This document shows positions 11,386 to 57,759 of a stretch of DNA of 64,000 nucleotides, one piece after another. Every line of letters begins with the position of its first letter. Position 1 is the first letter of the stretch. Under the pieces are notes generated by a model. That model saw nothing but the letters and a program-made list of their open reading frames with translations, was not told the DNA's origin and did no database searches. The DNA is from Planctomycetota bacterium (GTDB lineage Bacteria; Planctomycetota; MHYJ01; WSZJ01; JACPWG01): assembly GCA_016197205.1 (NCBI GenBank), contig JACPWG010000096.1:29902-93901 (forward strand). The letters run 5' to 3'. Made by a program: the position numbers and the translations under genes.

Positions 11386-11610
11386 GTGCCGGCGTGGGCA
11401 CGGCAGCGCCGTGCCCCTACGGCCAGGAGCACGCGGTGTGGCTCGACCCGCGGCCGCATCCGGTAGGGGCACAGCGTCGCCGTGCCCGCGTGAGCGGTCC
11501 GCGCCTCCACGCGGCCGTCGAACGCGTAGGGGCACGGCGCTGCCGTGCCCTCGGCTACGATGGATGCTCTCAATCGGCGGCCAACGGGTAGGGGCACGGC
11601 GTTGCGGTGC
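11386..11610. repeat. Tandem array of four 25-bp hairpin-forming palindromic repeats (GTAGGGGCACGGCGCTGCCGTGCCC) separated by unique 37-42-bp spacers. It is REP/BIME-like; the first copy is inverted.
   Basis: Copies are at about 11386, 11453, 11516 and 11578. The core has the 9-bp stem GGGCACGGC/GCCGTGCCC. Confidence 0.6.
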
Positions 11611-11616
11611 CCTCGA

Positions 11617-19007: not shown

Positions 19008-19255
19008 GGGGCGTGAGACTCCGACCAGGGGGTGACCGACGGCGGGGCGCGGTTGATCGTGCGGCGGCGCACATTCTGACAGCCGGGGCGGGAGGTTGTC
19101 AACTGCGGCGCGCGGGTCGAGTGCGAGATGGGAGGCTGGTGGTGGGAGGGGGCGAGGCGCGAGTTCGTGCGGGCCGGAGGCCCGCACCCCCAGGAGGGGG
19201 GTGACCAGACGGAAGGGCCGCGCGAGGTCCACGGGCGTCGATCCTCGAGCGCACC

Positions 19256-19287
19256 CCCTGGGGGCGCGGGCCTCCGGCCCGCGCGCA
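19256..19287. repeat. REP-like perfect palindrome CCTGGGGGCGCGGGCCTCCGGCCCGCGCG, copy 1 of 3.
   Basis: The 9-bp stem is GCGCGGGCC/GGCCCGCGC with loop TCC. It lies immediately left of the islet's direct repeat. Confidence 0.6.
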
Positions 19288-19304
19288 CGCCGCAACGTCA
19301 ACAC

Positions 19305-19482
19305 CCTCGCGCCCAGCCACTCCTTCGCCGCATCCAACAGGCTGTAGAACGCCGACACGACGACGAGCGTCAGCCCCGTCGACACGATCACTCCCCCGAT
19401 GACCGCCATGCACATGGGAACCCGGATTTCCCCGTCCGGCCCGAGCGCGAGCGCTCCCGGCACGGCCCCCGCCACGGTGGAA
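19305..19482 (-). pseudogene. Orphan fragment duplicating about 57 codons of the C-terminal region of the RND transporter gene 21390..24497. It corresponds to the displaced 3' end at an integration site.
   Basis: The translation AGAVPGALALGPDGEIRVPMCMAVIGGVIVSTGLTLVVVSAFYSLLDAAKEWLG is about 90% identical to residues near the RND C-terminus. The DNA is about 90% identical to 21459..21630. Confidence 0.7.
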
Positions 19483-36561: not shown

Positions 36562-38793
36562 TCAAGCCTTCGCGGTTTTTCGCGAGCCGACGTGGGCCAG
36601 CGTTCCCTTCACCGTGTCCACCAGCTCTTTCACCGTGAAAGGCTTGCGCAGGATCGGCCGCTTCGCCTTCTCGATCGGCCCGCTCAGGTCGCCCAGCACG
36701 TCCCCGGTCACGAAGAGGAAGCGGTCCGCATAGGCCGCATCCCGCGCGCAGACCGACTGGTACAGCCGCCACCCGGAGCTGCCGGGCAGCCGGACGTCGC
36801 TCAGGATCAGGTCGAACGGGCGACGTGAAACGAGGTCCAGGGCCGCCGCCGGTTCGTGCAGGCACTCGACCTGGTAGCCGACTTCGGTCAACGTCCGGCG
36901 GATCATGTACGCCATCCCCGGCTCGTCCTCGACCACGAGCACGCTGGCATCCGTCGAGGTCGGCGTCAGCGCGGAGAGCGCCGCCTCGGCCGCCGCCGCC
37001 CCGGGACTCTCGTCGAGGTGAGGCAGCTCGATGCGGAAGATCGCCCCGCCCCCCGGCGCGTTCGCCGTCGTCACGGAGCCCCCATGGTCGCGGACCACGC
37101 CGGCCACGAGCGCGAGCCCCAGCCCGGTCCCCTGCCCGATCGGCTTCGTGGTAAAAAAAGGATCGAAGATCCGCGTCAGGTTCTCCGGCGGGATTCCCGT
37201 GCCGGAATCCTCGATTTCGATGCGCACGAGACGGCCGTCCCCCGGCTCCGCCCGCATGCGCGTTACGATCCGTTTCGGCCCTCCCCGGTCCAGGACCGCG
37301 TCCCGCGCGTTCGCGAGCAGGTTCAAGAAGGCGCGATGGAGTTGTCCCCTGTGGCCGAGTACGCGAGGGAGGCCCGTGTCCATTTCGCGGACCACCTCGA
37401 TCCCGAGGGTGGCGAGCGGAGGGGACAGGGAGGCCAGGGCATCCTCCAGCAGCCCCGGCAGGTCCAGCGCCTCTTTCGGCGTCGACTCCCGCCGCACGAC
37501 CGCCAGGAGATCCTGCACGAGCGTCCTGCACCGGCGCGCCTCCGCGATCAGGATGCGCAGGTCCTCCTGGGTCTTCGGTTCCTTGGCGTCCCGCCCCAGC
37601 AGTTCGGAGAGCCCGAGGATCGAACCGAGCGGGTTGTTCAGCTCGTGCGCGACCCCCGAAATCAGCGTCCCGAGCGCGGCGAGCTTCTCGCGCTGGATCC
37701 GTTGCTGGCGATGCCGCTCCCGTTCCGAGGTCTCGCGCAAGAGCGTCAGGTAGACCGGCCGTCCGAGCTGTCGAAGCTGCTTCACGTTGACCGCCACCGG
37801 GCGGGCCCCGGCCGGACCCTGGACGTGGAACCCCTCCCGGTCCTGGCACTCGTGGCCGGACGCCACTTCCACCAGGACGTTCGCGAACGTCGGCCGCTCC
37901 GCCTCGGGGAAGAGCTGTTCGACGCGCAGGCGGCACAGCTCCTCGGCCGACACGCCGGTCAGCTTGGCCGCGGCGTGGTTCGCCTCCAGGATGACGTGCG
38001 TCGCCGCTTCCACCACGAAGGTCGCGTCCGTGTTCGCGCCGAACAGCTCCCGATAGCGCGCCTCGCTGGCCGCGAGCCGCTCGCGATATTCGGTTTCCCG
38101 GGCCAGCTCCAGCTCGCGATAGTACGGGCCGACGATGCGTTGCAGGAGGAGCACCCCCAGGAAGGGAGCGATGAGGAGCACGAGCAGACCCGCGAGGAGG
38201 GTCCGCCGGCGCGCCGCGTCGAGCCGGCGCGTGACGATTTCGTAGGGCTGGTGGACCGTGACGAACACGTGGAGCGGCTCGATCGGAGCCAGGGACAGCA
38301 GCTCCTCCTTGCCGGCGAGGGTGAAGTAGCGGCCCGCGAACGGGGCGCCCGCGCCCAGAACCTCGAGGAGGGAGCGGCGGTCCCCTTCCGCGCCGATGAC
38401 CGCACGGTCGCCGACCGAAACGCCGCGCAGGTCCGGGCGCCGGCTGTGCAGGAGGACGCGGCCTTCCGCATCCAGGATGCAGAGGTAGCCCTCCTCGCCC
38501 ACGTACAGCCCGTTGCTCTCCCGCTGGAAGCGGTCCACGAAATCGTCGACCGACGTGAAGGTCCCGGCCCGCGCCTCGAGGGTTCGCGCGAGGGCGTCGG
38601 CCAGCAGGACATTCTCCTGGTACACCAGCTCGACCAAACCCGCGCGCTCGCCGAGGTAGGCCGCCGTGCCCATCCCCGCCACGATCAGGATGCCGAGGCC
38701 GGCCACGGCGAGGGAGGTCTTGCTGACGAGGGTCAACCTGCGGGACCGCGTCCCGGCCCTGCCGCCGGCCTCCCCGCTCGAAGTCGAGGACAT
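36562..38793 (-). CDS. Hybrid sensor histidine kinase/response regulator, with a periplasmic sensor domain and PAS, HisKA, HATPase_c and REC domains.
   Basis: ATG at 38793. The H-box is VAHELNNPLG. G-boxes are present. The C-terminal receiver has VLVVEDEPGM..DLILSDVRLPG..K. Confidence 0.8.
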   Translation of the reverse strand: MSSTSSGEAGGRAGTRSRRLTLVSKTSLAVAGLGILIVAGMGTAAYLGERAGLVELVYQENVLLADALARTLEARAGTFTSVDDFVDRFQRESNGLYVGEEGYLCILDAEGRVLLHSRRPDLRGVSVGDRAVIGAEGDRRSLLEVLGAGAPFAGRYFTLAGKEELLSLAPIEPLHVFVTVHQPYEIVTRRLDAARRRTLLAGLLVLLIAPFLGVLLLQRIVGPYYRELELARETEYRERLAASEARYRELFGANTDATFVVEAATHVILEANHAAAKLTGVSAEELCRLRVEQLFPEAERPTFANVLVEVASGHECQDREGFHVQGPAGARPVAVNVKQLRQLGRPVYLTLLRETSERERHRQQRIQREKLAALGTLISGVAHELNNPLGSILGLSELLGRDAKEPKTQEDLRILIAEARRCRTLVQDLLAVVRRESTPKEALDLPGLLEDALASLSPPLATLGIEVVREMDTGLPRVLGHRGQLHRAFLNLLANARDAVLDRGGPKRIVTRMRAEPGDGRLVRIEIEDSGTGIPPENLTRIFDPFFTTKPIGQGTGLGLALVAGVVRDHGGSVTTANAPGGGAIFRIELPHLDESPGAAAAEAALSALTPTSTDASVLVVEDEPGMAYMIRRTLTEVGYQVECLHEPAAALDLVSRRPFDLILSDVRLPGSSGWRLYQSVCARDAAYADRFLFVTGDVLGDLSGPIEKAKRPILRKPFTVKELVDTVKGTLAHVGSRKTAKA

Positions 38794-39118
38794 AGCTGCT
38801 CCCGTCGCGCGGCGCCGCGCCGCGATCGAACCGACCGCGGGCGCATACCCTGGGCGCCCGTTTCGCACAAATTCCGTCCCCCTTATAGTGGACCGGTCCC
38901 CGCCGGTCAACCCTCGCGTGCGAATGGCGGCGCTACCGCTCGTCGGGGCGACGGGTGTCGCAGGCCGCTCCCGGTTCGGCTGCGCCGCCGCCGCCCCTGC
39001 GTACCTTGCATGTTGCCCGCCACGCGCTATAATCGGAGACCGTCCCGTCGACGGCGTCGGCAGCGTCGGCCCCGCCGGCCGCCCCTTCCGGGTTCCATCC
39101 AGTGTCGGGGAGCTTGAA

Positions 39119-42100
39119 ATGTCCGAGGGTCAGACCCAAGGTACCGGCGCCGCCGCGGCCGAGGTGGACGACCTCACCGGCCTCCCCAGCCGCCGCGCCC
39201 TGTCCGAGTACCTCGAAGCCGCGGTGAATTGGAAGTCCGGAAAGCCCACCCCCTTCTCCCTCCTCGTCCTCGACCTCGACGACTTCAAGCGGCTCGGCGG
39301 GCTCGCCGACCGCGGCGTCGGCGACCGGGCGCTCCTCCGCGTCGTGCAGGTGCTGCGCGAAACGGTCGGCGAGGGCGTCCGCATTTTCCGGTACGCCGGA
39401 GACCAGTTCGTCCTCTTCGCCTCCGACATCAACCGGAAGGCGGCCGTCGCGCTCGGCGAGACCCTGCGCGTCCGCATCGCCTCGGAGTCCTTCGTCGGGG
39501 CCGGCGCCGCCGAGGTCCGCATGGGCGCCTCCGTCGGCATCTCGGCCTTCCCCGACGACGCCCAGACCGCACGCGGCCTCCTCGGCTGGTGCCAGCTCGC
39601 CCTCCGTCAGGCGAAGAAGGCCGGCAAGGACCGCGTGTTCGAGACCTCCTTCGTCGATACCACGACGCTCGCCGAGAAGGCCGTGCTCGACGGCTTCCCG
39701 TGCCGCCGCACGGTGAGCCGCGACCGCGAAGTGGCCGCCCTGCTCGAGGCGCTCCGCATGGCCTCGCGCGGGAACCCTCACCTCTGCCTCGTCCACGGCC
39801 CGCCGGGCGTGGGAAAGACCCGCCTCCTGCGGGAGCTTGCGTCGGCGGCGGAGGGCGACCGCTGGACGCTCCTTTCCCTGGCCTCGCCGCCGGAGGAGGC
39901 CGCCATGCCTTTCTCCGTGCTGGTGTCCCTGCTCGAGCGCCACCTCCGCGCGCAGCCCTCCAGTCGCGAGGCGCTGCAGGACCTCGCCCCGGAGGCCGCG
40001 CAGAGTCTCGTCGCCGCGCTGCCCGGCTTCCGCGACCTCCTGCCGCAGGTCGCCGTCGACCTGTCCGCCGTGCGTCGCACGCGGCTCTTCGAAGCGCTGC
40101 TCGGCGTGCTCCGCGGCCTCGCGCTGCGGTCGCCCCTCCTCGTGCTCGTGGATGACGCGGATTTCCTCGACGAAGGCTCCGCGGAGGTCTTCCGCCACGC
40201 CCTGACGCAGCCGATCCTCCGCTTCGCCCTGGTTTGCGCGTGCCGGTCCGCGGAGGAACCCGGCGTCGATCCCGACGGAGTCGTGGGTTCGGGCTCGGGC
40301 TCGGGCTCGCGCGCGCCGGCCGGCGGGACGTCCGCTGCGGCCCCCGCGATGAACCTCGCTTCGATCGCGCCCCCGGGCTCCCCGCTCGCCGATTTGCTCG
40401 CCTGGGCCGCCGCGCGCGCCGCCTTCCGTCGCATCCCGCTCGGCGGGCTTGACCTGGTCCAGATGAATGAACTGGTCTCCTCGCTCATCCCCGGCCGCCC
40501 CCGGGACGCCGCCTTCGACCAGGCCGTGTACCAGCTCACGCGCGGCAACCCGCTCTTCGTGGAGGAAACGCTCAAGCGGCTCATCTTCCTCCGCGTCCTC
40601 CAGCGGCTGCGGGACGTCTGGACGCTCGGCGCCATTCCGATGGAGCACATGCCCACCGTCCTCGACCACATCCTCCGTGACCACGTGGAACGACTCGATC
40701 CCGAGACCCTCGAGGTCCTCTCCGCCGCCGCGGTCATCGGCTCCCAGTTCCCGATCGGGCGCCTCAAGGCCCTCCTTGGCCGGAACGAAGGGGAGACCAT
40801 GCACATCCTCGACCGCGCGCGCCGCGTCGGGCTGATCGTGCCTTACGGGCCGGGCGGCGACGAAGTGGTCCAATTCGCGTCCCGGCGGACGCGCGAGGCC
40901 GCCTACGGCCGCATTCCCGAGGAGGAGCGCCGCGCGATCCACGCGCGCCTGCTCCAGCTCGAAGTGGACGCGGCCGCCGCGTCGCTGGAGGCTGCGTTCG
41001 CGCGCCTCGCGTGCCATGCGGCGCAGGCGGGCGATGCCGCAAAGGCCGGCGAATACCAGGCCCGGCTCGACGTCCGCCGGGCGTTCCTCTTCGACGCCGC
41101 GGAAATCCGCTCGGCGCTTCCCTACCCGACCGACGGTCACGCGCCCGTGATCACGGAAGGGCCTCCGCTCGACCCGTCCACGCTCGAAATCGTCGTGGCC
41201 ATGGCCCGCTCCCTCACGATGGCGGTGAACTCCAGCGGCTACTATCCGCCCGGCAGCACGATCATCATGAACGCGGTCCTCACCTTCCACCGGGCGCTCA
41301 AGGACGTGCTCGACCGCGTGGAAAGCTTCGCGCTGTCCGACGGCGGCGAAAGCCTGCTCGTCAACGGCCATCGGATCCCGGCAGGCATCCCGTCCCAGCC
41401 GACCCAGGAGTTTCTCTGGCTGCTGTCCTCCTCGCGCATCCGCGCGGTCCGGTTCCGCCGCGGCCTCACTCCCGACGAGGCGCGCAAGCTCGTCGATCTG
41501 CTTGGCACGCCGCCGGCCGAGGACGCGGTCCTGCCGAACTACTGGGAGTCCCTGCTGCGCGTGAGCGGCGTGAAGCATGCCGAGCTGCTCCAGGCCGGGG
41601 ACGGCGCGCGGAAGGCCGCGCCGGTCGCGGGTCGGGAACCGCCCGCGCCGTTGACCGAAGCCGGCCTTGCCGCGCTCCGCGAGCTCCTGCGCTACCTTTC
41701 GTTCGCCATCGAGACGCTGCGGACTTCGGGGCGCGGGCGGATCCAGCTCGCCGGGTCCGCGGAACGGATGGAGGACGCGCTCGCCCAGCTCTTCCGCCAC
41801 GCCGATCGGGTGCTGGTGGTGCGGGACGAAGAGAGCTTCCGGGTGAACGGGGAGCGCGCCGACCTGCGCGCCCTCGGCACCTCCGCGTCGGACCTGCACC
41901 GCACGTTCGGCCAATGCGGCCTCGACGCCTTCGGACTCGCGCGCGGCGCCACCGTTCCCGAGGTTACCCGCTTCCTGCAGGCCGTGGCCACCTGCCCGGG
42001 TCGTCCGAGCACGCCCAGGTACTGGGAAAACCTCGCCCAGGAGATGGGGCTTGTGAACTGCTTCCTCGGCGAGTTCGCGTCCGCGCAGTCGGAGCCCGGA

Positions 42101-43678
42101 GCGTCCTCGGCCCCTCCGTCGTCCGGGTCCGGCTCCGGGGGCGCGGCCCTGTCCTCCGCCGCGTCCGCGGGGTCGCTCGCGGGTCCGGCTGCGGGCCCGT
42201 CCCGGTTCGGCCGCGCGGAGTCCACGTCGGACGAGCGAGCGGCCTTCGGCGGACCCTCCTCCCTGCGAAGCGAGAGCCAGCGACTGAAGGGACAGCAGGC
42301 CGCGGCCGCTCTCGCGGTGGTGGAGAGCTATGTTTTCGGGCCGGCCTCGTCCCGTGCCGGAGCTCCGGGGGGGGAGCCCGGCGGTCCCGCCCGCGGAGGG
42401 GGCCTTCCCGATCCGTTCTCCGCGGCGGGCGCGCCCTCAGGTGTTCACCTGAACTCGCCGGCCGTGCCCATGGCGCCGCCCCCGGTGATCGTGAACGAGC
42501 TGGCCGCGCCCTTGCAGCACCTCCACGGCGCGCAGGCCTGGGACGGTTTCCATCGGGTCGTGGGGCGGCTCCTGGAGGGGCTCGCGCTACCCGAGGAGGC
42601 GGCGCGTCTGCGGGCGGCGGGCTTGACCACGTCCGTCCTTCTTGCGCTGCCCGCGGCGCAACCCGAACTCTACGCGGCCCTCGTCGAGCCGCTCGCGCTT
42701 CGCCTCTGCCTGGAGCCGTCTCCGGGCGTGCTGGACGCGCTGCTGGCTCTCGCCCTCGACGCGGTTCGCTTTTTCGTGGAGCGGGGCGAGCTGACGGCGA
42801 TCTGTCGGCTCCTGTCCGAGGTGCCGCGGGGCGGCGAAGGAGGAGGCGACAAGGGCGCGTCCTCCGCCCGCGCGCAACGGGGGGCCGAGTTCCATCGCCG
42901 GCTCGCCGAGTCCCCGCTCGTCGACCTCCTGCTCCATCGGGTGGCGGATCCGGAGCCCGCGCAGCAGAACCTCTCCCGGCAGGCGCTCATGTCGCTGGGG
43001 CCCGCCATTCTTCCGAAGTTGCTCGCGTTCGTAAAAGGGGCCGGCGAGCTGGCCCCGCGCCGCGCCGCCGCGGCCGTGCTCCGGGCGGTCCACCCGGGCG
43101 CGGAGGCGGAGGTCGTCCGGGAGCTGAGCCCCTTCGCGCCGGCGGCGGAGTGTGGACGGCTGGTGGAGGTGCTGGACCTGCTCGTGCAGGACCCGACGGC
43201 CGCCGCGCTGGCCACCGCGCGTCACCCGGATCCCCAGGTGCGGGAGCGTCTCCTCGGACTGTTGCGCCGGCTGGAGCGCGGCACGGTCGTGCGGATTCTC
43301 TTGCGTGCGCTCAAGGACGACGATCCCGCCGTCGGGCGGGTCGCGATTCCGTGGGTCGGCGACCTGCGGCTTGCGGAGCTGATCCCGACCCTGGGGACGC
43401 TTTTGAAGGATGCACGCGATGCCGAGACCCAGGAGGGGCTGTGCCTCGCCCTGGGCAAGATCGGCGACGCGGGCGCGGCGCCCGCCCTTGCGGGCGTGCT
43501 GGCGAAGGTCCCGACGCTCGGCCTCTGGGGCGGCCTGCCCGAGCGTGTCCGCAATGCGGCGGCCTGGGCCCTCGGGGCGCTCGGCGTGCCCGCGGCGCGT
43601 GAGACGCTGGAGCGCGCGGCGGCGCGAGATCCGTCGGCGCTCGTCCGGTCCACGGCGAAGCTGGGGCTGAGGCAGTGA
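39119..43678 (+). CDS. STAND-type signalling protein of 1519 aa. It has an N-terminal degenerate GGDEF domain (RYAGDQF in place of GGDEF), a P-loop NTPase module, a long helical region and C-terminal HEAT/PBS repeats.
   Basis: GGGGAG lies 6 nt before the ATG. The Walker A is HGPPGVGKT and the Walker B is LLVLVDDAD. The C-terminal repeats read AAAWALGALG...ARETL. Confidence 0.75.
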   Translation: MSEGQTQGTGAAAAEVDDLTGLPSRRALSEYLEAAVNWKSGKPTPFSLLVLDLDDFKRLGGLADRGVGDRALLRVVQVLRETVGEGVRIFRYAGDQFVLFASDINRKAAVALGETLRVRIASESFVGAGAAEVRMGASVGISAFPDDAQTARGLLGWCQLALRQAKKAGKDRVFETSFVDTTTLAEKAVLDGFPCRRTVSRDREVAALLEALRMASRGNPHLCLVHGPPGVGKTRLLRELASAAEGDRWTLLSLASPPEEAAMPFSVLVSLLERHLRAQPSSREALQDLAPEAAQSLVAALPGFRDLLPQVAVDLSAVRRTRLFEALLGVLRGLALRSPLLVLVDDADFLDEGSAEVFRHALTQPILRFALVCACRSAEEPGVDPDGVVGSGSGSGSRAPAGGTSAAAPAMNLASIAPPGSPLADLLAWAAARAAFRRIPLGGLDLVQMNELVSSLIPGRPRDAAFDQAVYQLTRGNPLFVEETLKRLIFLRVLQRLRDVWTLGAIPMEHMPTVLDHILRDHVERLDPETLEVLSAAAVIGSQFPIGRLKALLGRNEGETMHILDRARRVGLIVPYGPGGDEVVQFASRRTREAAYGRIPEEERRAIHARLLQLEVDAAAASLEAAFARLACHAAQAGDAAKAGEYQARLDVRRAFLFDAAEIRSALPYPTDGHAPVITEGPPLDPSTLEIVVAMARSLTMAVNSSGYYPPGSTIIMNAVLTFHRALKDVLDRVESFALSDGGESLLVNGHRIPAGIPSQPTQEFLWLLSSSRIRAVRFRRGLTPDEARKLVDLLGTPPAEDAVLPNYWESLLRVSGVKHAELLQAGDGARKAAPVAGREPPAPLTEAGLAALRELLRYLSFAIETLRTSGRGRIQLAGSAERMEDALAQLFRHADRVLVVRDEESFRVNGERADLRALGTSASDLHRTFGQCGLDAFGLARGATVPEVTRFLQAVATCPGRPSTPRYWENLAQEMGLVNCFLGEFASAQSEPGASSAPPSSGSGSGGAALSSAASAGSLAGPAAGPSRFGRAESTSDERAAFGGPSSLRSESQRLKGQQAAAALAVVESYVFGPASSRAGAPGGEPGGPARGGGLPDPFSAAGAPSGVHLNSPAVPMAPPPVIVNELAAPLQHLHGAQAWDGFHRVVGRLLEGLALPEEAARLRAAGLTTSVLLALPAAQPELYAALVEPLALRLCLEPSPGVLDALLALALDAVRFFVERGELTAICRLLSEVPRGGEGGGDKGASSARAQRGAEFHRRLAESPLVDLLLHRVADPEPAQQNLSRQALMSLGPAILPKLLAFVKGAGELAPRRAAAAVLRAVHPGAEAEVVRELSPFAPAAECGRLVEVLDLLVQDPTAAALATARHPDPQVRERLLGLLRRLERGTVVRILLRALKDDDPAVGRVAIPWVGDLRLAELIPTLGTLLKDARDAETQEGLCLALGKIGDAGAAPALAGVLAKVPTLGLWGGLPERVRNAAAWALGALGVPAARETLERAAARDPSALVRSTAKLGLRQ

Positions 43679-44029: not shown

Positions 44030-46783
44030 ATGCTGCGCTACGAGGACTTCCTGCTCGGACGCCGTGCCTGCGCCGCGGGCCTGGTTTCCGAGGACCGGCT
44101 CTGGGCGCTCTACCGACGTCTGGAGCACGAGCCCGACGGGCTCGGCCTTGCCGAACTGCTCGTCGCAGGCGGCGTGGCCACGCGCGAAGAACTGGGCGCG
44201 CTGGCGCGCGCCGGCCCAGGACCGGCGGGAGTCGCACAAGTCGCCGACGGCGCCCCGACCCTCACGGACTCCGGCTGCGCGACGGCGCAGCCTTCCCATT
44301 CGTCCCCGCCCCCCGCGTCGTCCGCCATCCTGAACCTCCCGCTCCCGCCCATCCCCAGCGAGGCGTCGACGCTGCTCGGCTCGTCCGAGCTGAACCTCAT
44401 GCCGGGCCCGACCGGCGGCGCGGCGGCCGTCCTCTCGCAAGGACCGGGCGCGGCCCCGAATCCTGGTCGCCTGTTCGGCAAGTACGAGCTCCTGGACGTG
44501 GTCGGGCATGGGGGGATGGGCGTCGTCTACAAGGCCCGGGACCGCGACCTGGGCCGAGTCGTGGCCTTGAAGACCCTGCTCGCCGGCTCCACGCAGGATC
44601 CGAACCGCATCGCTCGCTTCTACCGCGAGGTCCGGATGGCCGCTTCCCTGTGCCACCCGGCCATCCTCCCGATTCACGACGTCGGCTGCGAGGGCGGCTT
44701 CCATTATTTCACGATGGACCTCGTCGAGGGGGAGACGCTGGAGGCGCGGCTCGCCGCGGGTCGTCCCGAGCTGCGGCAAGGGGTCGAGTGGGTGCGGGGG
44801 ATTGCGGAGGCCTTGGATTTCGCGCACGCGCAAGGGGTCGTGCATCGGGACGTGAAGCCCTCCAACATTCTCATCGACCGCGCCGAGCGACCGTTCCTGA
44901 GCGATTTCGGACTTGCGCGCGGGATTCAAGACGCGACGGAGCTGACCGCGAGCGGGGCGGTCGTGGGCACGCCTTCGTACATGGCCCCCGAGCAGGCCGG
45001 GGGCGTGGGGCCGATCGATGGGCGCTGCGACGTCTTTTCGCTTGGGGCGGTCCTCTACAAGGTGTTGGCCGGCGTCCAGGCGTTCACCGGCGACTCGCCG
45101 GCCGCGGTCATGCACCAGACGCTGCTGTGCGATCCGCCGCCGCTTCGGAAGCGGGACCCGTCCCTGCCGCGGGACCTTGAGGTGATTTGCCACAAAGCGC
45201 TTGAAAAGGAACCCGCGCGTCGCTACGCGACCGCGGGTCATTTCGCGGCGGACCTGGGCAGGTACCTGGCGGGGGAGCCGATCCTGGCGCGACCGCTCGG
45301 CGTCGGCGCGCGGCTCGGACGGTGGGCGCGTCGCTTCAAGCTGCCGCTCGCGGCCGCGGTCGTGGCGGTTGCGGCCGTGGGGCTTGCGTGGCGGGAGCGC
45401 GCGGGGCGCGAGGCGCAGGCGGACTCGATGCTGGAGGAGGCGGCCGGGGCCGTGGAGCGGTTCGAGGACGCGGCGATGCGCCATCCGATGACGCCCGCGG
45501 TCCGGAAACTGCTTGCGACGCAGCCGTCGGGGCTTCTGGATCGCCTGCTCGTCGAGGCCCCGGAGTTCGGTCCCCTCTACGCGTGGCGCGGCAAGCTCCA
45601 CGACCTCGTCGGCGAAGAGGCGCGCGCCGAGGACGACTATGGCGAAGGCTGCCGGCGCGGCGCCCGCTACGCGATCGTCTGGTTTCTCCGCGGTACCCAC
45701 CGGATCGCGCGCTACGTGCGCGTTCGCGGCCTCCCGACCACGCGCGTGGAGGCGAATCATCTGGAGTTCGTGCCGCCGCGGGAGGAGACGCCGGACGAGC
45801 GCGCGTGTCGCGAGGGCGGGCTTGCGGACCTGGAGGAGGCGCTCGCCTCCGGCGGCGGGCGCGGCCTCGTCGGGCGGCAGGAGACGAAGCTGGCGCGGGC
45901 GATGAGCGCGCTCTACGCCGGGCGGGAGGGCTGCTACGAGTCGGCTCTCGGGCTGCTCGAGGGCGTGACGCTGCCGACCGCGGACCGTCTGCGCGGCATC
46001 GCGCTTTACCATCTGCAGCGCTTCGGAGAGGCGCGGGAGGCCTTCGGCCGCTGCCTGGCCGAGTGGCCGGAGGACGTGGAGGCCTACCATCTGCGAGCGC
46101 ACGCGGCCTACGCCTCGGGGATCGCCGAGGCCGCGCGCGGGGAGGATCCTCGGGCCTTCTTCGAAAAGGGGATCGCCGACCTGGACGAGGCGCTTCGGCG
46201 GGAGCCGGGCCGCGTGAAAGTGTACAACAGCCGCGGGGCCATGCGTCACCACCTGGCCCAGGTCGAGGCGAGCGCGGGCATCGACCCGCGCGGCGAGTTC
46301 GAGAAGGCGTGCGCCGACTACGGCGAGGCGATCACGCGGGACGCCGGCTTTGTGCTTGCGTACACGAACCGCGGTTTCGCCCGGCTCGAACTCTCTTCGG
46401 CGATCGCGGCGCACGACGAGGACCCCACGCCCGCCCTTCGTCTCGCCCTCGCGGATCTCGACCAGGCCGTGCGCCTCGCGCCGGAATTCGCCGACGCCTA
46501 CAACAACCGCGGCAATGCGTGGAAAAGCCTGGGGCTGGCGCAGGAGCATCGGGGCGAAGACGCGTCCGAGAGTTTCCGTCGCGGCGAGACCGACTACAAG
46601 GAGGCCGTCGCTCGGGGAAATCCGACCGCGTACCTGAACCTCGGCGTGCTGCTGCGCTGCATGGGGCGCAACCAGGACGCCATCGCCGCCTTCGAGGCCG
46701 GCGCGCGCGCCGCCCCCGCGCACGCCGACTGGGCGCGGCAGCAACTGGACTTCACGCGGCGCTTGATCGGCGGCGGGAAGTGA
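44030..46783 (+). CDS. Ser/Thr protein kinase with C-terminal TPR repeats.
   Basis: Motifs GHGGMGVVYKA, HRDVKPSNIL, DFGLA and GTPSYMAPE are present, followed by TPR-like repeats. Confidence 0.85.
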   Translation: MLRYEDFLLGRRACAAGLVSEDRLWALYRRLEHEPDGLGLAELLVAGGVATREELGALARAGPGPAGVAQVADGAPTLTDSGCATAQPSHSSPPPASSAILNLPLPPIPSEASTLLGSSELNLMPGPTGGAAAVLSQGPGAAPNPGRLFGKYELLDVVGHGGMGVVYKARDRDLGRVVALKTLLAGSTQDPNRIARFYREVRMAASLCHPAILPIHDVGCEGGFHYFTMDLVEGETLEARLAAGRPELRQGVEWVRGIAEALDFAHAQGVVHRDVKPSNILIDRAERPFLSDFGLARGIQDATELTASGAVVGTPSYMAPEQAGGVGPIDGRCDVFSLGAVLYKVLAGVQAFTGDSPAAVMHQTLLCDPPPLRKRDPSLPRDLEVICHKALEKEPARRYATAGHFAADLGRYLAGEPILARPLGVGARLGRWARRFKLPLAAAVVAVAAVGLAWRERAGREAQADSMLEEAAGAVERFEDAAMRHPMTPAVRKLLATQPSGLLDRLLVEAPEFGPLYAWRGKLHDLVGEEARAEDDYGEGCRRGARYAIVWFLRGTHRIARYVRVRGLPTTRVEANHLEFVPPREETPDERACREGGLADLEEALASGGGRGLVGRQETKLARAMSALYAGREGCYESALGLLEGVTLPTADRLRGIALYHLQRFGEAREAFGRCLAEWPEDVEAYHLRAHAAYASGIAEAARGEDPRAFFEKGIADLDEALRREPGRVKVYNSRGAMRHHLAQVEASAGIDPRGEFEKACADYGEAITRDAGFVLAYTNRGFARLELSSAIAAHDEDPTPALRLALADLDQAVRLAPEFADAYNNRGNAWKSLGLAQEHRGEDASESFRRGETDYKEAVARGNPTAYLNLGVLLRCMGRNQDAIAAFEAGARAAPAHADWARQQLDFTRRLIGGGK

Positions 46784-46867
46784 GAGGGAGAATCGTCACG
46801 AGCTGTTCATGGGGACGACCGGAGAGCAGAAGCTCTACACAACAATTTCCGAATTCCCGTCACGATT

Positions 46868-46898
46868 CCTGGGGGCGCGGGCCTCCGGCCCGCGCGAA
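46868..46898. repeat. REP-like palindrome, copy 2, lying between the Ser/Thr kinase and the NACHT gene.
   Basis: It is identical to the 31-mer at 51427..51457 in inverted orientation. Confidence 0.6.
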
Positions 46899-46998
46899 CT
46901 GGCACTTGTCCTCCACTTCCCCGCAACCGCGGGCCCAAAGGTGACCAGTGTTCGTCAACGCGGTACTCGCCACCGTGGCGCCCGGAGCCGAGCCCGGC

Positions 46999-47028
46999 TT
47001 GACGCCGCCCTCGGACTGCGCGTAGAAT
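46999..47028 (+). promoter_or_regulatory. Near-consensus sigma-70 promoter (TTGACG-N18-TAGAAT). It predicts a leaderless transcript for the NACHT gene.
   Basis: The -10 element ends 7 nt before the ATG at 47035. No Shine-Dalgarno sequence is present. Confidence 0.4.
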
Positions 47029-47034
47029 GAAGTC

Positions 47035-49314
47035 ATGACGCCTCCCCAGCCGAACCCCAATCTGCCCGTCGCGGCTTGTTCCCCCGCGCCTCCACCGGCG
47101 GGCTCTGTCGCCGACCACCCGCTCTGGCGGGCCATCTGCGCCTACGCTCGCGGTCCGGAGATCGCCCGCCTTCGGTATGTCGGTTTTCGCCTACAAAAAA
47201 AAGGTCCGCCCAGCCTCCCCATCGAGGAGGTCTTCGTCCCGCCCGAGGTGGAGCTGATGGTGCGCGGCTTGGCGCATGAGGCGGCCGAGAAGCCCGCGAG
47301 CCCGCGGAGCGACTCGACCTCGCCGGCGCCAACGAACAAGCCCTGGGCGGGGCACACGCCGGAGCGGTTGGTCTCGGCGTCCTTTGTCGACGTGTTTCGC
47401 GAATCGCGAGGCGTCGTCCTTCTGGGGGGGCCTGGCTCGGGCAAGACCACGGTCGTGCGTCGCCTTGCGACCGCCGCCGCGGCGGGGGCGCCGGCGTTGG
47501 AGGCTGCGTTCGGGGTGCGGGAGGAGCTGCTACCGTTGCCCGTCAGCGTCGGACTGCTCGCCGAACATCGGCGGCGGTCGGCCGTCGGCATCACGGTAGT
47601 TGACGCGATGGCGCCGTACCTCGCCGCACGCTGCGCCGCACGCGAGCCGGAGCTCCACGCCTTTCTCGAAGACCGGCTTGCGAGCGGCGCATGCCTGGTG
47701 CTCCTGGACGGCCTGGACGAAGTCCACCGCGAGGAGCGCAGGGCCGTGTCCCAATGGCTGGAGGGCTTTGCGAACCGTTACCCGGCAAATCGATTCGTCG
47801 TCACCTCCCGCGTCGTCGGGTATGCGCACTTCCGCTTGCCGAGCGGGGTCGAGGTGACGCTCCGCGCATTCAGTGACGCGCAAGTCAAGGCCTTCGTCAG
47901 GAGCTACTTTCGCGCTTGCTGGGCCTGGGAGAACGAAGATCCGGCCGGGTCGGGGTCGGAGACGGCAGCGATGGACTTTTTGGCCGCCCTCCGGGCCAAC
48001 CCGCGCATGGCGGGGCTTGCCCGAAGTCCCTTCCTCCTGTCGGCCCTCGCGCTCGTCCACCGTGCCGAGGGGAAGCTGCCGCGTCATCGGGTGGCGGCCT
48101 ACGACATGTTCGCTCGCGCCCTGTGCGAAACCTGGGACGAGGCGCGACGCCTGTCCCCTGTGTCCCCCGGTACGGGGGCGACCGCGACCGCGTCCGTGTC
48201 GTACGAGGAGGAGGCGATCCCCATCCTCGGAGAGCTGGCGATCCGAATGCACGAACGGTATCCGGCCGGCATCGCCCCCGATGAGTTTGTCCGGCGAACC
48301 CTGGAGCAGGCCCTCCGCGAGCGGGTGGGCCTGTCAGAAGCCGACGCGCGCCCGGCGGTGGACCGATTCCTGAGCTTGGTCACGGAGCGCTCGCCGATTT
48401 TGCAGGAGCGCGGACCCGGGAACTGGGGATTCTTCCACCTGACCTTTCAGGAGTTCTTCGCTGCCCTGGGACTGCACTACCAGGACCGCTTCGAGACCGT
48501 TGCCTGGGAGCATCTGTTTCACGCCCGTTGGCGCGAGGTGATTCGGCTTGGCCTCGGGTATCAGGCTATCGTGCAGAAGCGTGGGCGGGCGACGCAGACT
48601 TTCGTCGAGCGTGTGTGGAGGCAGGGGCGGGACTCCCAGCGGCCATGGGTGACAGAAGTCTTGAGGAAGCACGTCCCGCTTGCGGTGCTCCTCGCCGCGG
48701 AGGCGGGGGACGCGCTCTCCCCAAACGTTCAACAGGGGTTGGTGCACGATTTCGTGCAATGGGCGCCCCTGCGGCACCCCGAGATTTCGAGCTCCCTGAT
48801 GACAGACCTCGCCCAGAGTGTCCTTAGGGAGCAAATCGTGAGGCTCTTCCCCTTCGATCCCTGCTATCCCAACGTGCAACGCCTCCACTACCTGGAAGAC
48901 TATGCTCGTGAGCCAGGCGACCGCCCACGCGCCTCTAGAGTAGTCAGCGTATTGACAATCAATGCAGGGGGTAACACGCTCTGGGTGTCCGAGAATGAGG
49001 TGAATGAGGCCTTGAGTGCTGTTCGCCCAGGGAGCACGGCCATTTGCACTGCGCGGAACGCGCTGGCTGCCGCGATCGAGCCTCAGGAGAAGATTGTTGC
49101 AGCGCTGATCCTTGCCCGTCTGGGCGGATTGGAAGCTGTGCCGGGCCTCCTCGATCTCCTCAACTCGGACCACGAAGTGCTTCGGAACGGTGGTGTTTGG
49201 ATTCTCGGTGAGTTGGCCGCCGAGGTCGCCGTGCCCGCTCTCTTGGGGCCAGCAAAGGCCGGGGATCAGGACGCGCTCGCCGCCCTCTGGAAGATCTCCG
49301 AGGCCCTGGAATAG
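47035..49314 (+). CDS. NACHT-domain NTPase (bacterial STAND) with C-terminal HEAT repeats and only a short N-terminal segment.
   Basis: Walker A is LLGGPGSGKTT. Walker B is LVLLDGLDEV. Sensor-1 is FVVTSR. The C-terminal repeats read ILARLGGLEAVPGLLDLLNSDHEVLRNGGVWILGEL. Confidence 0.8.
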   Translation: MTPPQPNPNLPVAACSPAPPPAGSVADHPLWRAICAYARGPEIARLRYVGFRLQKKGPPSLPIEEVFVPPEVELMVRGLAHEAAEKPASPRSDSTSPAPTNKPWAGHTPERLVSASFVDVFRESRGVVLLGGPGSGKTTVVRRLATAAAAGAPALEAAFGVREELLPLPVSVGLLAEHRRRSAVGITVVDAMAPYLAARCAAREPELHAFLEDRLASGACLVLLDGLDEVHREERRAVSQWLEGFANRYPANRFVVTSRVVGYAHFRLPSGVEVTLRAFSDAQVKAFVRSYFRACWAWENEDPAGSGSETAAMDFLAALRANPRMAGLARSPFLLSALALVHRAEGKLPRHRVAAYDMFARALCETWDEARRLSPVSPGTGATATASVSYEEEAIPILGELAIRMHERYPAGIAPDEFVRRTLEQALRERVGLSEADARPAVDRFLSLVTERSPILQERGPGNWGFFHLTFQEFFAALGLHYQDRFETVAWEHLFHARWREVIRLGLGYQAIVQKRGRATQTFVERVWRQGRDSQRPWVTEVLRKHVPLAVLLAAEAGDALSPNVQQGLVHDFVQWAPLRHPEISSSLMTDLAQSVLREQIVRLFPFDPCYPNVQRLHYLEDYAREPGDRPRASRVVSVLTINAGGNTLWVSENEVNEALSAVRPGSTAICTARNALAAAIEPQEKIVAALILARLGGLEAVPGLLDLLNSDHEVLRNGGVWILGELAAEVAVPALLGPAKAGDQDALAALWKISEALE

Positions 49315-49318
49315 CCGG

Positions 49319-49978
49319 TCACCGCCGCCGCGATAGCCGAAACACTCCCACGAATTCGCCGTCGTCGCTGCGGACCTTGCGCAACGCCTCAGCGATCTGG
49401 CGCAGGTCCCGCGCATGCCGCGCCTCCCCGTGAAGCGCCGGCCGCGCCCGCAGTTGTGCTCGCAACTCACGCGCCTGCCTCCGGAGATCCCGGTAGGCGC
49501 GCCATCGCTCGGCCCGGCGGCTGGCGAGCACCTCCCGGTTCAAGTCGAGCCCGTCCGGAGCGACCGTCTCCTTTCCTGCCCCGTCAATGCCGACGAGCGT
49601 GATGAGCCCCATGCCACCCCGAACCTCCCGAGCGCGCAGGTGGATGGCGGGGTCGAAGCCCGCAGCGCAGGGGTCGAGGGGATGACGACATGCGTCCTTG
49701 CTCCTCCCGTTCATCACTTCCTTGATTTGGTTACACCCGTGACAGGACAGCCGGAGATTTTGCCAGTCGAATTCATGCTCTGGCCAAAGTCCCACGCCCT
49801 TGGGCAGGTAGTGTTCCCGCTCCGGGGAGTCCGTTTCGCTCTCGCAATACGCGCACTTGTTCCGGAATATCCCCAGGAGCCACCGCAGCACAGGCTTCTC
49901 GGGGTAGTCGTCCATCCTTCCACTCGCCAGTACCGCGAGGGCCTCCGCGGGTGGCGGTCCCAGCGTTACTGGCCTCAT
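49319..49978 (-). CDS. HNH endonuclease of the Septu PtuB-like family (associated with AAA_21-type ATPases).
   Basis: The motifs CAYCE...EHYLPKG...W.NLRLSCHGCNQIK are present. The ATGA overlap links it to the upstream ATPase. Confidence 0.7.
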   Translation of the reverse strand: MRPVTLGPPPAEALAVLASGRMDDYPEKPVLRWLLGIFRNKCAYCESETDSPEREHYLPKGVGLWPEHEFDWQNLRLSCHGCNQIKEVMNGRSKDACRHPLDPCAAGFDPAIHLRAREVRGGMGLITLVGIDGAGKETVAPDGLDLNREVLASRRAERWRAYRDLRRQARELRAQLRARPALHGEARHARDLRQIAEALRKVRSDDGEFVGVFRLSRRR

Positions 49979-51306
49979 GGTGTCCCCGCGCCACTCATCG
50001 GAGGGAGCTGCTCCGGCGGGCTGAGAGTCTCAAGCTGCCCCTCCCACTCGTCGATCCGCCGCTGCTGCTCCGCCGTCGGGGTGGCGTCCCCGATCTCCGC
50101 CAGGAGTGCGGACAGCTTCCCGAAGACCTCCATCACCTTCACGGGCAGGTCCGACACGCCGAAGAGGTCGGTGATGATGCGGCTGATGGTCTTCGCCAGC
50201 GGCGCCCCGGTGTCCGAGCGCACGGTTTCACAGGTGACGCCGTCCTTCGCACGAACCAACCGATGGACGCGATACGAGCGGTTCAGGCCGACCAGCCCCG
50301 TGAGGACCAGTGGCGAGTGCGTCGCCACGATGAACTGCGCGTTGGGCAACAAGCTGGAGAGCCGGGGAATGACCTGCCGTTGCCAGCTCGGGTGAAGGTG
50401 CGCGTCGAGCTCGTCGATCAGGACGATGGCCGGCGCCTCGAAGGCCTCCTCCCGAGGCTGAGGCTGGGAGTAGAGGACCCCCTCCGCGACGCGCAAGGCC
50501 AGCGCCAGGATCGCCTGTTCCCCATCCGAGAGCATGTGGAAGGGGAGTTCCGCGTGCGGGCCGCGGATCATTACGTGTCCGACCTGCGTGTGGAACGGGA
50601 GCAATTCGTACCCAGGGAGTAGCCTTCGAATCGCGGCTTGATAGGCAGTGAATTCGCGCAGGCACTCCGACCGCCCTTCCTTATCGTCGATCACTTGGCG
50701 CATGTATGCCGCGACCACGGAGCTCAGTGGGCCCGCAGCGCTGTCGGTACCGTTGAGCGCGCGATTGTAATTCTCCGATCTCACCGCGACGAGGCGTGGC
50801 GGCAGCACGTATTTCGCCTCCATCCGACCTGTCTGTAATCCTGCGGGCCGGATCGACGGCACGAAAACGAAGGGTGTGGTCGCTTGGGCGCCCTCGGCCG
50901 GCTCTAGCGGACCCGCTCGGGAGGATGTGCGCGTGCTGTCGAAGCCGTACTCCGAGAGGAGAGTCGTTTCGCTTCCCTGCGCCAAGGTCTCGCGCATCGT
51001 GAACCACGCGCTCTTGGCCCCTCCGGCCATCATGGTACTCACCTGGTGGCCCGTAACGTCGGGCAGGTCCTCGAGGCGACCCTCGAGCCGCGCGAAGACC
51101 TCGGCTGTGGTCATGCCCGCCCGCATGAGCGATTCAGGGTACTGCTGGCTCGCAAGGCCGCGGTTCAGATAGATCGCGAGCAAGCGCAGGATCGTGCTCT
51201 TCCCCGACCCGTTGTCACCGATGAGGACGTTCCAGGCGGGGTCAAGATCGAGGGTTGCGCGACCGACGCACTTGAGGTTGGTGAGTTCCAGGCTGGCGAA
51301 GCGCAA
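49975..51306 (-). CDS. ATPase of the AAA_21/ABC-type (Septu PtuA-like).
   Basis: Walker A is GDNGSGKST. LSDGEQ and the Walker B IVLIDELDAHLHP are present. The H-loop is ATHSP. The likely TTG start at 51306 gives MRFASLELTNLKCV, and GGAGAG lies 5 nt upstream. A GTG at 51384 is an alternative start. Confidence 0.7.
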   Translation of the reverse strand: MRFASLELTNLKCVGRATLDLDPAWNVLIGDNGSGKSTILRLLAIYLNRGLASQQYPESLMRAGMTTAEVFARLEGRLEDLPDVTGHQVSTMMAGGAKSAWFTMRETLAQGSETTLLSEYGFDSTRTSSRAGPLEPAEGAQATTPFVFVPSIRPAGLQTGRMEAKYVLPPRLVAVRSENYNRALNGTDSAAGPLSSVVAAYMRQVIDDKEGRSECLREFTAYQAAIRRLLPGYELLPFHTQVGHVMIRGPHAELPFHMLSDGEQAILALALRVAEGVLYSQPQPREEAFEAPAIVLIDELDAHLHPSWQRQVIPRLSSLLPNAQFIVATHSPLVLTGLVGLNRSYRVHRLVRAKDGVTCETVRSDTGAPLAKTISRIITDLFGVSDLPVKVMEVFGKLSALLAEIGDATPTAEQQRRIDEWEGQLETLSPPEQLPPMSGAGTP

Positions 51307-51426
51307 GGGGGCTCTCCGAAACGTGTGGATTCGCGGACAGCACGGACCCGGGGAGCGCGTGGCCCGTGGACGGAATTTGAACACGGTCCTCAGCCGAGTT
51401 ACGGCAAGCCGTAGCTCTGGTGGCCG

Positions 51427-51457
51427 TTCGCGCGGGCCGGAGGCCCGCGCCCCCAGG
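51427..51457. repeat. REP-like palindrome, copy 3 (inverted), lying upstream of the PtuA-like ATPase.
   Basis: Its reverse complement matches 46868..46898. Confidence 0.6.
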
Positions 51458-51691
51458 AAGGGCGTCTGGAATTCGTGAATGGGGCAGTAGGAATTCGATG
51501 CTTGCTCCGCGAGTCTAACCTATCGAACGCGTGGAAACAAGCCGAACGTCCTCGATCGCGTGCGACTTTGATTCGTCGATCGTTGCGCTCGGCGGGAGAA
51601 TGTTGCAAAATAGCGGCACGAGGTCAGCCGCCGGGAATTTGCCGGAGTGTCGCGGCGGATACCCACCCCGGTCCTTTGAGGCGCTTCTCGC

Positions 51692-56810: not shown

Positions 56811-56937
56811 TGTGCGCGTCGGGGAGGCGCCGCGAGAACGGTCGCGAAGCGGCCGAGGGCGCGCGTCTCCGTAGCAACGCGTCCCCTCCTACCACCTCAT
56901 TCCTGATCCGTCCCTTGCTGCATCGAGACGGGTGCGC

Positions 56938-57759
56938 ATGTCCGAAACACCCGAGGCCGCTGCGCGCGAGAAGATCGATCGCCTTCTCAACCAGTGCGGG
57001 TGGGACGTCCAGTCCCACGCGCAGATGAACATTACCGCGTGCCCCGGCGTCGCGGTCCGGGAGTTCCCGCTCAAGACCGGCTTCGCCGACTACCTCCTCT
57101 ACGCCGACGCCAAGGCCATCGGCATCGTCGAGGCGAAGCCCGAGGGCCACACCCTCACGGGCGTCGAGGTCCAGTCGGCCAAGTACACCTCGGCTCTCCC
57201 GGCCGGCGTTCCCCGCTACCACCTGCCGCTGCCGTTCGCCTACGAGTCCACGGGCGCCGAGACGCAATTCACGAACAACCTCGACCCCAGCCCTCGCAGC
57301 CGGGAGGTCTTCGCCTTTCACCGGCCCGAGGAATTGATTCGACTTGCCAAGCTCGACTCGCAGGTCCGGGCAAACCTCGGCAAGCTGCCGGTGCTGGACG
57401 CCGGCCGGCTCTGGCCCGTCCAGAGCATGGCCATCAACACTGCGGAGAGGGCCCTTCGGGGAATCGCAGTGGGACGAAAGAACTGGCTTTTCGCAGGCAG
57501 CGACGCGGGCGGCGCACATGCCGCGGTGTTCTACACCTTGATCGAGAGCTGCAAGGCCGTGGGCGCGGAGCCCTTCGCCTACCTGCGCGACATTTTTGCG
57601 CGCATCGCGGCCTATCCCGCGCGGCGCATCGCCGACCTGATGCCAGTAAACTGGGCGGCAGCCCGACGCGCTGCGACAGTGGCGCCCCCGGCTGCTGTCG
57701 CCCCCCTCCTCGGTGGCCTCGTGCTGCCCTCCGGAGAGGCCGCGGTCGCGCAATCGTAG
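56938..57759 (+). pseudogene. Mosaic remnant. The N-terminal about 150 aa are the N-terminal domain of a type I restriction enzyme R subunit (HsdR_N). The C-terminal about 95 aa are the C-terminal fragment of an IS66-family transposase.
   Basis: KIDRLLNQCGWDV...FPLKTGFADYLLY..IGIVEAK is HsdR_N. ...GRKNWLFAGSDAGGAHAAVFYTLIESCKAVGAEPFAYLRDIFARIAAYPARRIADLMPVNW is the IS66 TnpC C-terminus. The junction is near 57400-57475. Confidence 0.65.

Follow-up and report, generated by a model that had tools for sequence, protein, structure and literature searches.

A predicted Septu operon tail to tail with a shortened NACHT gene in a Planctomycetota genome: probably a one-off juxtaposition

Three genes occupy a 4.6-kb block in a 64,000-nucleotide stretch of a Planctomycetota genome (assembly GCA_016197205.1, contig JACPWG010000096.1); this whole stretch is called the window below. 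One of the genes encodes a NACHT NTPase, and the other two, on the opposite strand, encode an ATPase and an HNH nuclease that resemble PtuA and PtuB of the antiphage system Septu. An earlier note on this DNA had read the block as either a composite defence island or a previously undescribed three-component system. We consider it probable (roughly 0.7) that a Septu operon lies here tail to tail with an orphan NACHT gene that has lost its 5' part, that the pairing is unique to this genome and stems from a repeat-associated rearrangement or a foreign segment, and that Septu would work alone. The block contains the following features, flanked by elements that resemble repetitive extragenic palindromic (REP) sequences:

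46845..46905, plus strand: left REP-like element, with its hairpin at 46875..46895
46999..47028, plus strand: sigma-70-like promoter match, TTGACG-18 nt-TAGAAT (a match to the consensus only)
47035..49314, plus strand: NACHT NTPase gene (759 aa, MBI3270653.1)
49319..49978, minus strand: ptuB, predicted Septu HNH nuclease (219 aa)
49975..51306, minus strand: ptuA, predicted Septu ABC-type ATPase (443 aa, MBI3270655.1)
51420..51480, minus strand: right REP-like element, with its hairpin at 51430..51450

The coordinates and translations of the open reading frames (ORFs) confirm the gene layout that had been proposed for the block. The three ORFs lie where they had been placed, the ptuA stop and the ptuB start overlap as ATGA, and the NACHT and ptuB stop codons converge with 4 nt (ccgg) between them, where no terminator-like site or structure was seen. 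The ptuA gene has a TTG start preceded by GGAGAG, within a longest ORF that extends to 51384, and its product is 100% identical to NCBI protein MBI3270655.1. An independent Logan assembly of run SRR12113391 matches the window from 46872 to 51449 at 100% identity. The contig index contained no exact match to the NACHT or PtuA protein of the window, and this cassette-spanning Logan contig was the only one recovered.

The adjacency of the NACHT and Septu genes did not recur at any of the loci that were compared. A genome scan yielded 80 NACHT loci, 6 of which belong to the close family, and a metagenome scan with a family-specific stretch contributed 23 more close loci. The fetched loci, 1.56 Mb in total, were searched with a PtuA profile built from 80 homologues and by tblastn with the PtuA and PtuB of the window. 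Neither a PtuA nor a PtuB neighbour was found at any of the 103 NACHT loci (29 close and 74 distant). Likewise, none of the three closest PtuAB loci (L082, L083, and L084) had a NACHT neighbour. The PtuA proteins of these three loci are 38-41% identical to that of the window, and as L083 and L084 encode one and the same PtuA, they represent two independent sequences. The suggestion of an undescribed three-component system is not upheld by this pattern: NACHT homologues that never lie beside PtuAB-like genes are what the earlier note had itself held to speak against it, and this is what the 103 loci contain. Judged from these sequence comparisons, the placement of NACHT next to PtuAB is a one-off juxtaposition and not a conserved three-component system.

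Some ATPase genes were nevertheless found near NACHT loci. No ABC-ATPase neighbours were seen other than genes of the HEC-01A type, one in L093 (10595-12406), directly after the NACHT-HEAT gene and followed by a DUF4276/HEC-01B gene, and one in L087 (6655-7905), about 4 kb from the NACHT-HEAT gene. In addition, L021 contains a frameshifted AAA_21 gene 5 kb from a distant NACHT gene.

The three closest PtuAB loci share the gene order X-PtuA-PtuB, and X is absent from the window. This gene lies directly 5' of ptuA (L082 6532-9168, L083 2800-5537, L084 685-3173) and encodes a core of about 165 aa, with 54% identity across the two lineages; it had no match among the Pfam or PADLOC models. L082 (MBI3270995.1) probably derives from the same metagenome-assembled genome (MAG) as the window, since its accession falls in the run of accessions of the window proteins, and would then be a second Septu locus in that genome.

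The first gene of the block encodes a NACHT NTPase whose N-terminal segment is very short, as had been described. It matches the Pfam NACHT model with E = 7e-13 and 49.2 bits (cutoff 26.7), and its motifs are intact, with GGPGSGKTT as Walker A and LLDGLDEV conforming to the D[GAS]hDE form of the NACHT Walker B signature, as defined by Kibby et al. (bioRxiv 10.1101/2022.07.19.500537). Only about 22 proline-rich residues precede the family core, which leaves no N-terminal effector domain. The NACHT and helical core spans residues ~23-602; similarity to the family runs from the linker (residues ~8-23) to residue ~602 (window position ~48840), with 45-51% identity (for homologue P0004, 50% over 586 aa, E = 1e-161). 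None of the PADLOC models gave a NACHT-type match to this protein.

The HEAT repeats reported for this protein give a sub-threshold signal, with HEAT_2 scores that stay below the Pfam cutoff of 27.7 bits (20.1 bits for the whole protein and 24.7 bits for the 158-aa tail alone). These 158 aa compare with a HEAT array of ~350-400 aa in the family, so that about 250 aa are missing. The last ~50 residues align to the native C-terminal end of a 913-aa homologue from Sorangium (ALWKIS versus ALWKLS, E = 0.004). An insertion of PtuAB that cut off the 3' end of the NACHT gene was considered and rejected on account of this match. Together with the sub-threshold HEAT score of the tail, the native end identifies the HEAT array as apparently contracted rather than cut off by ptuB. 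As for the near-consensus sigma-70 promoter attributed to this gene, a site matching at 10 of 12 positions does end 6 nt before the ATG, but with one such site found versus 0.4 expected it is not significant alone, and a leaderless NACHT transcript can only be inferred from it.

The homologues of this protein are mostly 1100-1200 aa long. At the N-terminus, 116 of 119 homologues are longer by 81 aa or more (median 172 aa), and all 31 homologues of the multiple alignment have such an extension. When 1.84 billion representatives were searched exhaustively with HMMER, P0035 and P0390 were the only further family hits to begin at the linker, and neither a closer relative nor a clade of short forms was found. 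PtuAB was not found downstream of P0035, the only one of these two that could be looked up. The N-terminal domain of the family had no Pfam match. An AlphaFold model built from 16 sequences reached a predicted local distance difference test score (pLDDT) of 83.7, and its top Foldseek matches were catalytic domains of class III adenylyl and guanylyl cyclases (E ~1e-9, target-normalised template modelling score 0.75-0.77); the ~170-aa domain is thus predicted to have a class III cyclase fold.

A second element of the family lies upstream. At 21 of the 25 informative close loci, that is, close-family loci with enough upstream DNA, a gene of ~395-450 aa encoding SLFN_AlbA_2 and HATPase_c_4 domains sits directly 5' of the NACHT gene, usually with a 4-nt overlap; it is found at none of the 74 distant loci. 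The normal form of the family is therefore, as far as gene content and order indicate, a two-gene operon, with the SLFN_AlbA_2/HATPase_c_4 gene followed by that of a ~1150-aa protein composed of a cyclase-fold domain, NACHT, and a long HEAT array. By tblastn, no remnant of the N-terminal domain was detected upstream of position 47035, and no partner gene was detected anywhere in the window. Compared with its homologues, the NACHT gene of the window is an atypical, shortened member: the NACHT core is still there, as are the native C-terminus and a contracted HEAT tail, and nothing else of the family layout. Because 116 of 119 homologues have the ~170-aa domain and 21 of 25 loci have the partner, the absent N-terminus is better explained as a loss.

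Full-length operons of this family were observed outside the window, in loci L002-L007 and L087-L109 (for example, L005 8178-12796 and L007 8292-13237). PADLOC gave no system-level match for them; the NACHT-HEAT protein matched only HEAT-ARM_XIII/WGR_XIII models, and the partner only pAgo/Aga. One family member has a different N-terminal domain (VFVASPGDV...). The SLFN_AlbA_2 and cyclase-fold-NACHT-HEAT operon may represent an uncharacterised STAND (signal transduction ATPases with numerous domains) signalling or defence system.

The ATPase and HNH genes fit the Septu PtuA/PtuB architecture that the earlier note had assigned to them, and profile searches agree with it for both proteins. PtuA matches the PADLOC PtuA model over model positions 2-413 of 436 (E = 1.1e-47), as well as Pfam AAA_21 (E = 2.6e-21), AAA_15 (E = 1.5e-19), and SMC_N. 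Its translation contains GDNGSGKST, LSDGEQ, and LIDELDAHLH, the Walker A, signature, and Walker B motifs of an ABC/SMC-type ATPase, and among solved structures it aligns best with Septu PtuA (8ee4) and with PtuA chains from the Ec78 and Ec83 retrons (E = 1e-17 to 1e-21). PtuB matches the PADLOC PtuB model with E = 4e-19. Its Pfam HNH score of 17 bits is below the cutoff, and the protein matches the PDB PtuB chain and TIGR02646/NF041761 weakly. Its assignment as a nuclease therefore follows from the PADLOC PtuB models and from the motif CAYC...EH...N...CHGCN, visible as CAYCE...EREHY...WQNLRLSCHGCN, which comprises the paired zinc-binding CxxC and the catalytic histidine. Thus, the HNH nuclease named before is supported by these two features, but not by the Pfam HNH model.

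Several features mark the pair as free-standing. The ptuA gene lies directly 5' of ptuB on the same strand, with overlapping stop and start codons, as in Septu operons. PtuA has 443 aa, which is the stand-alone length (465 aa in 8ee4), versus ~550 aa in retron-associated PtuA, which has gained an N-terminal extension and other elements for retron binding (PMC12819146). The Pfam search detected no reverse transcriptase domain in the three genes of the block, and neither Rfam RNA families nor tRNAs were matched in the window. Given the PADLOC and structure matches, the length of PtuA, and the lack of reverse transcriptase and Rfam RNA matches, the pair is classified here as a predicted stand-alone, translationally coupled type I Septu operon. 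It is a divergent one: the nearest relative of PtuA is 41% identical, and the NCBIfam equivalog models, built on retron Ec78, are matched only below their cutoffs. No relatives of PtuA were found on viral contigs. As for the function to be expected of the pair, published work describes a PtuA oligomer that restrains the PtuB nuclease, with DNA nicking that drops as ATP rises (PMC12819146), and Septu is also reported to block phage T6 via cleavage of tRNA-Tyr (PMC13096335).

The block is indeed bracketed by inverted copies of a REP-like element, GCGCGGGCCTCCGGCCCGCGC at 46875 (+) and 51430 (-). What had been described as a perfect 21-bp palindrome is instead a 9-bp stem with a 3-nt loop, and as the loop (TCC/GGA) is asymmetric, the hairpin has an orientation. 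The left hairpin, GCGCGGGCC-TCC-GGCCCGCGC at 46875..46895, has its CCTGGGGG head facing out and its GAAC tail facing in. Each flanking copy lies ~125-140 nt upstream of the gene that it faces (NACHT on the left and PtuA on the right). A scan of the window for the hairpin pattern gave 8 matches versus 0.16 expected, and the core 13-mer occurs in 5 copies versus 0.04 expected. The copies outside the cassette are:

19167 (-) and 19264 (+), region 19167..19284: two further hairpin copies, head to head, ~76 nt apart
16512: a weak hairpin copy from the pattern scan

All copies share a common form, roughly CCTGGGGG-hairpin-CG(A/C)AC; in the 19167 copy a compensatory C>T/G>A double change keeps the stem. 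The four strong copies sit between called genes, and 85 loci taken from other organisms lack the hairpin. With 4-5 copies in 64 kb, the hairpins are assigned to a dispersed REP-like family. The two flanking copies share an identical run of 34 nt and agree at 52 of 61 positions (85%) over 46845-46905 and 51420-51480, with weaker similarity out to ~75 nt, versus 37-41 of 61 for every other pair of copies. By this measure they are sister copies in inverted orientation. Target-site duplication was not visible around the two copies, and the Pfam search detected no transposase or integrase domain inside the block. The block thus has the 61-75 nt inverted repeat of a terminal-inverted-repeat transposon, without its duplication and transposase.

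Beside the head-to-head pair at 19167 and 19264, the short ORF at 19290-19425 (-) resembles, as judged by eye, the C-terminus of a resistance-nodulation-division (RND)-type efflux transporter (…VIGGVIVSTGLTLVVVSAFYSLLDAAKEW…) and may be a fragment. A second hairpin family, GGGCACGGC-NNN-GCCGTGCCC, is present at window positions 11396-11612 in four direct copies with a spacing of 62-71 nt and variable loops, and 28 nt of it recur where L082 ends, shortly after the ptuB gene of that locus. This cluster looks like a REP or bacterial interspersed mosaic element (BIME), with a degenerate array of the kind seen in clustered regularly interspaced short palindromic repeats (CRISPR) as the alternative. 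The genome is rich in REP-like hairpins at gene boundaries, so two of them flanking a block are unremarkable. The additional similarity of the left and right copies points to a common rearrangement history of this pair.

The three genes are also set apart somewhat in composition. Their GC content at third codon positions (GC3) is 0.78-0.83 versus 0.88-0.91 in the neighbouring genes, towards the lower end of the range in the window; in overall GC the block shifts only modestly. The flanking gene encoding a DUF255 protein has its nearest orthologues at 65% identity, and these have wholly different neighbours and no synteny with the window. An IS66-family transposase fragment, consisting of C-terminal parts only, lies at 56875-57759, ~5.5 kb downstream of the cassette, which suggests that the region is somewhat plastic. 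The other neighbours include a histidine kinase, a GGDEF-AAA_16-HEAT protein (38666..43678, 1670 aa) without a PADLOC match, and a Ser/Thr kinase with TPR repeats (44030-46783, MBI3270652.1). The latter matches the PADLOC PD-T4-6 models with E values down to 4e-86, mainly over the kinase domain. It was set aside as a defence gene, as this is probably a generic match to Hanks kinases. The composite defence island of the earlier note is weakly supported by these signalling genes, and the neighbourhood is defence-island-like at most. As a separate observation, the diguanylate cyclase output of the GGDEF-AAA_16 (STAND-like)-HEAT protein (38666-43678) parallels the cyclase-fold, STAND, and HEAT layout of the full-length NACHT family.

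In the reading that we favour, Septu would act alone, as for stand-alone PtuAB. An oligomer of the PtuA ATPase would restrain the HNH nuclease PtuB until infection, upon which DNA nicking or tRNA cleavage would stop the phage. The NACHT protein, which has no output domain, would either be a remnant in decay or work autonomously as a sensor only, unconnected to PtuAB. The 4.6-kb block, with its NACHT operon shortened at the 5' end, would have arisen by repeat-mediated rearrangement or horizontal acquisition. A number of observations weigh against this explanation. The NACHT ORF is fully open and retains Walker A GPGSGKT and the signature DGLDE, and the possibility that NCBI had flagged the gene as a pseudogene was rejected, as it is annotated as a normal 759-aa protein (MBI3270653.1). 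Of the 156 positions that are near-invariant in the family, 142 (91%) are conserved in this protein, the third lowest share among 32 sequences but within a family range of 88-100%; from its sequence, the core does not appear visibly decayed. A good promoter-like site precedes the gene as well. The lower GC3 common to all three genes, together with the 4-nt packing, would fit co-acquisition and selection on both transcription units, and L093 and L087 hint at a tendency of the NACHT family to sit near ATPase-based defence candidates. Lastly, as the nearest relatives are only ~51% (NACHT) and ~41% (PtuA) identical, a young, lineage-specific pairing would escape the comparison.

These points bear on several other explanations. 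The two systems could form a small defence island, in which Septu and a minimal NACHT sensor are independent, both functional, and were acquired together on one horizontally transferred segment. The lower GC3 of all three genes, the two close NACHT-HEAT loci by a HEC-01 candidate (adjacent in L093 and ~4 kb away in L087), the IS66 fragment ~5.5 kb downstream, and the well-conserved NACHT core are in line with this. The NACHT protein, however, has neither an effector domain nor its usual partner, and thus no evident output, and it has no NACHT-type PADLOC match. Its surroundings consist of ordinary genes for signalling and housekeeping, and the compositional shift is modest, so that we regard this as unlikely. 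An improbable alternative, which is compatible with the other readings, is that the block is a mobile 4.6-kb cassette with the inverted repeats of ~61-75 nt as its termini, moved in trans, for example by a REP-associated tyrosine transposase or by REP recombination. The closer likeness of the left and right copies (52 of 61 positions, versus 37-41 for others) and the lower GC3 inside the block agree with such a unit, as does the Logan contig that starts and ends within the two hairpins; a short-k-mer assembler, however, would break at a 34-nt inverted repeat anyway. Moreover, the core hairpin recurs as a dispersed repeat of the genome, the block has neither a visible target-site duplication nor a transposase or integrase, and neither a second copy of the cassette nor an empty site was found.

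It is more improbable still that the three genes form a true three-component system, in which the effector-less NACHT-HEAT protein would sense infection through its HEAT tail and activate or license PtuAB in trans, by analogy with type I-A retrons. Such a system would account for the intact NACHT ORF and motifs, the promoter-like site, the shared atypical GC3, the tight 4-nt packing, and the presence of the same hairpin ~125-140 nt upstream of both transcription units, and the co-option of PtuAB by another sensing module has a precedent (PMC12819146). Yet the hairpin is also found at an unrelated locus in the window, the genes are convergent and not co-transcribed, and PtuA has the stand-alone length, without the added elements of retron-associated PtuA. 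Furthermore, no second instance was detected among the 103 NACHT loci or the closest PtuAB loci, and the family architecture marks the missing N-terminal domain and partner as losses. The least probable version of all is that the NACHT-HEAT sensor has been recruited as a regulatory third part of Septu, as a STAND or nucleotide-binding leucine-rich repeat (NLR)-type receptor controlling a separately encoded effector, with the hairpin before both units.

With the Septu operon and the orphan NACHT gene as the preferred reading, this locus adds a divergent Septu, found in a MAG labelled Planctomycetes, and illustrates how a STAND immune-type gene can be reduced to the NTPase core; current understanding is not altered by either. 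If NACHT did control PtuAB, this would be the second case, after the type I-A retrons, of Septu as a plug-in effector, and a rare bacterial NLR-like receptor signalling to a separately encoded effector. A more useful by-product is the conserved SLFN_AlbA_2 and cyclase-fold-NACHT-HEAT operon outside the window, without a system-level match among the PADLOC models searched. The X-PtuA-PtuB variant and the hairpin families provide other leads.

Among the known systems, the full-length NACHT family operon shares with the window a core of ~580 aa (~45-51% identity) and the C-terminal end, whereas the window lacks the N-terminal domain, the partner, and ~250 aa of HEAT. Compared with the bacterial NACHT (bNACHT) proteins of Kibby et al. 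(bioRxiv 10.1101/2022.07.19.500537), the NACHT protein of the window has no N-terminal effector domain and only a short HEAT tail that scores below the Pfam cutoff, and the comparisons turned up no relative that has been tested by experiment. Type I-A retrons (Ec78/Eco7) use PtuAB as an effector module under another sensing module (PMC12819146), and the PADLOC ATPase_I-A and HNH_I-A models also match the pair in the window. However, the block has no reverse transcriptase or noncoding RNA, and its PtuA lacks the ~100 aa of extra length. The window shares with type I Septu (8ee4/8ee7) the order of an ABC-type ATPase gene (AAA_15/AAA_21) and then a small HNH nuclease gene, which overlap and run in the same direction. 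The PtuA of the window is divergent from it (41% to the nearest), and the ~165-aa upstream gene X of its closest relatives is absent here. Finally, the flanking element resembles REP sequences and their paired form (REPIN) in being a short, GC-rich, imperfect palindrome that is extragenic, occurs in several copies and inverted pairs, and has a compensated stem, but the flanking pair lies 4.5 kb apart here, versus tens of bases in REPINs.

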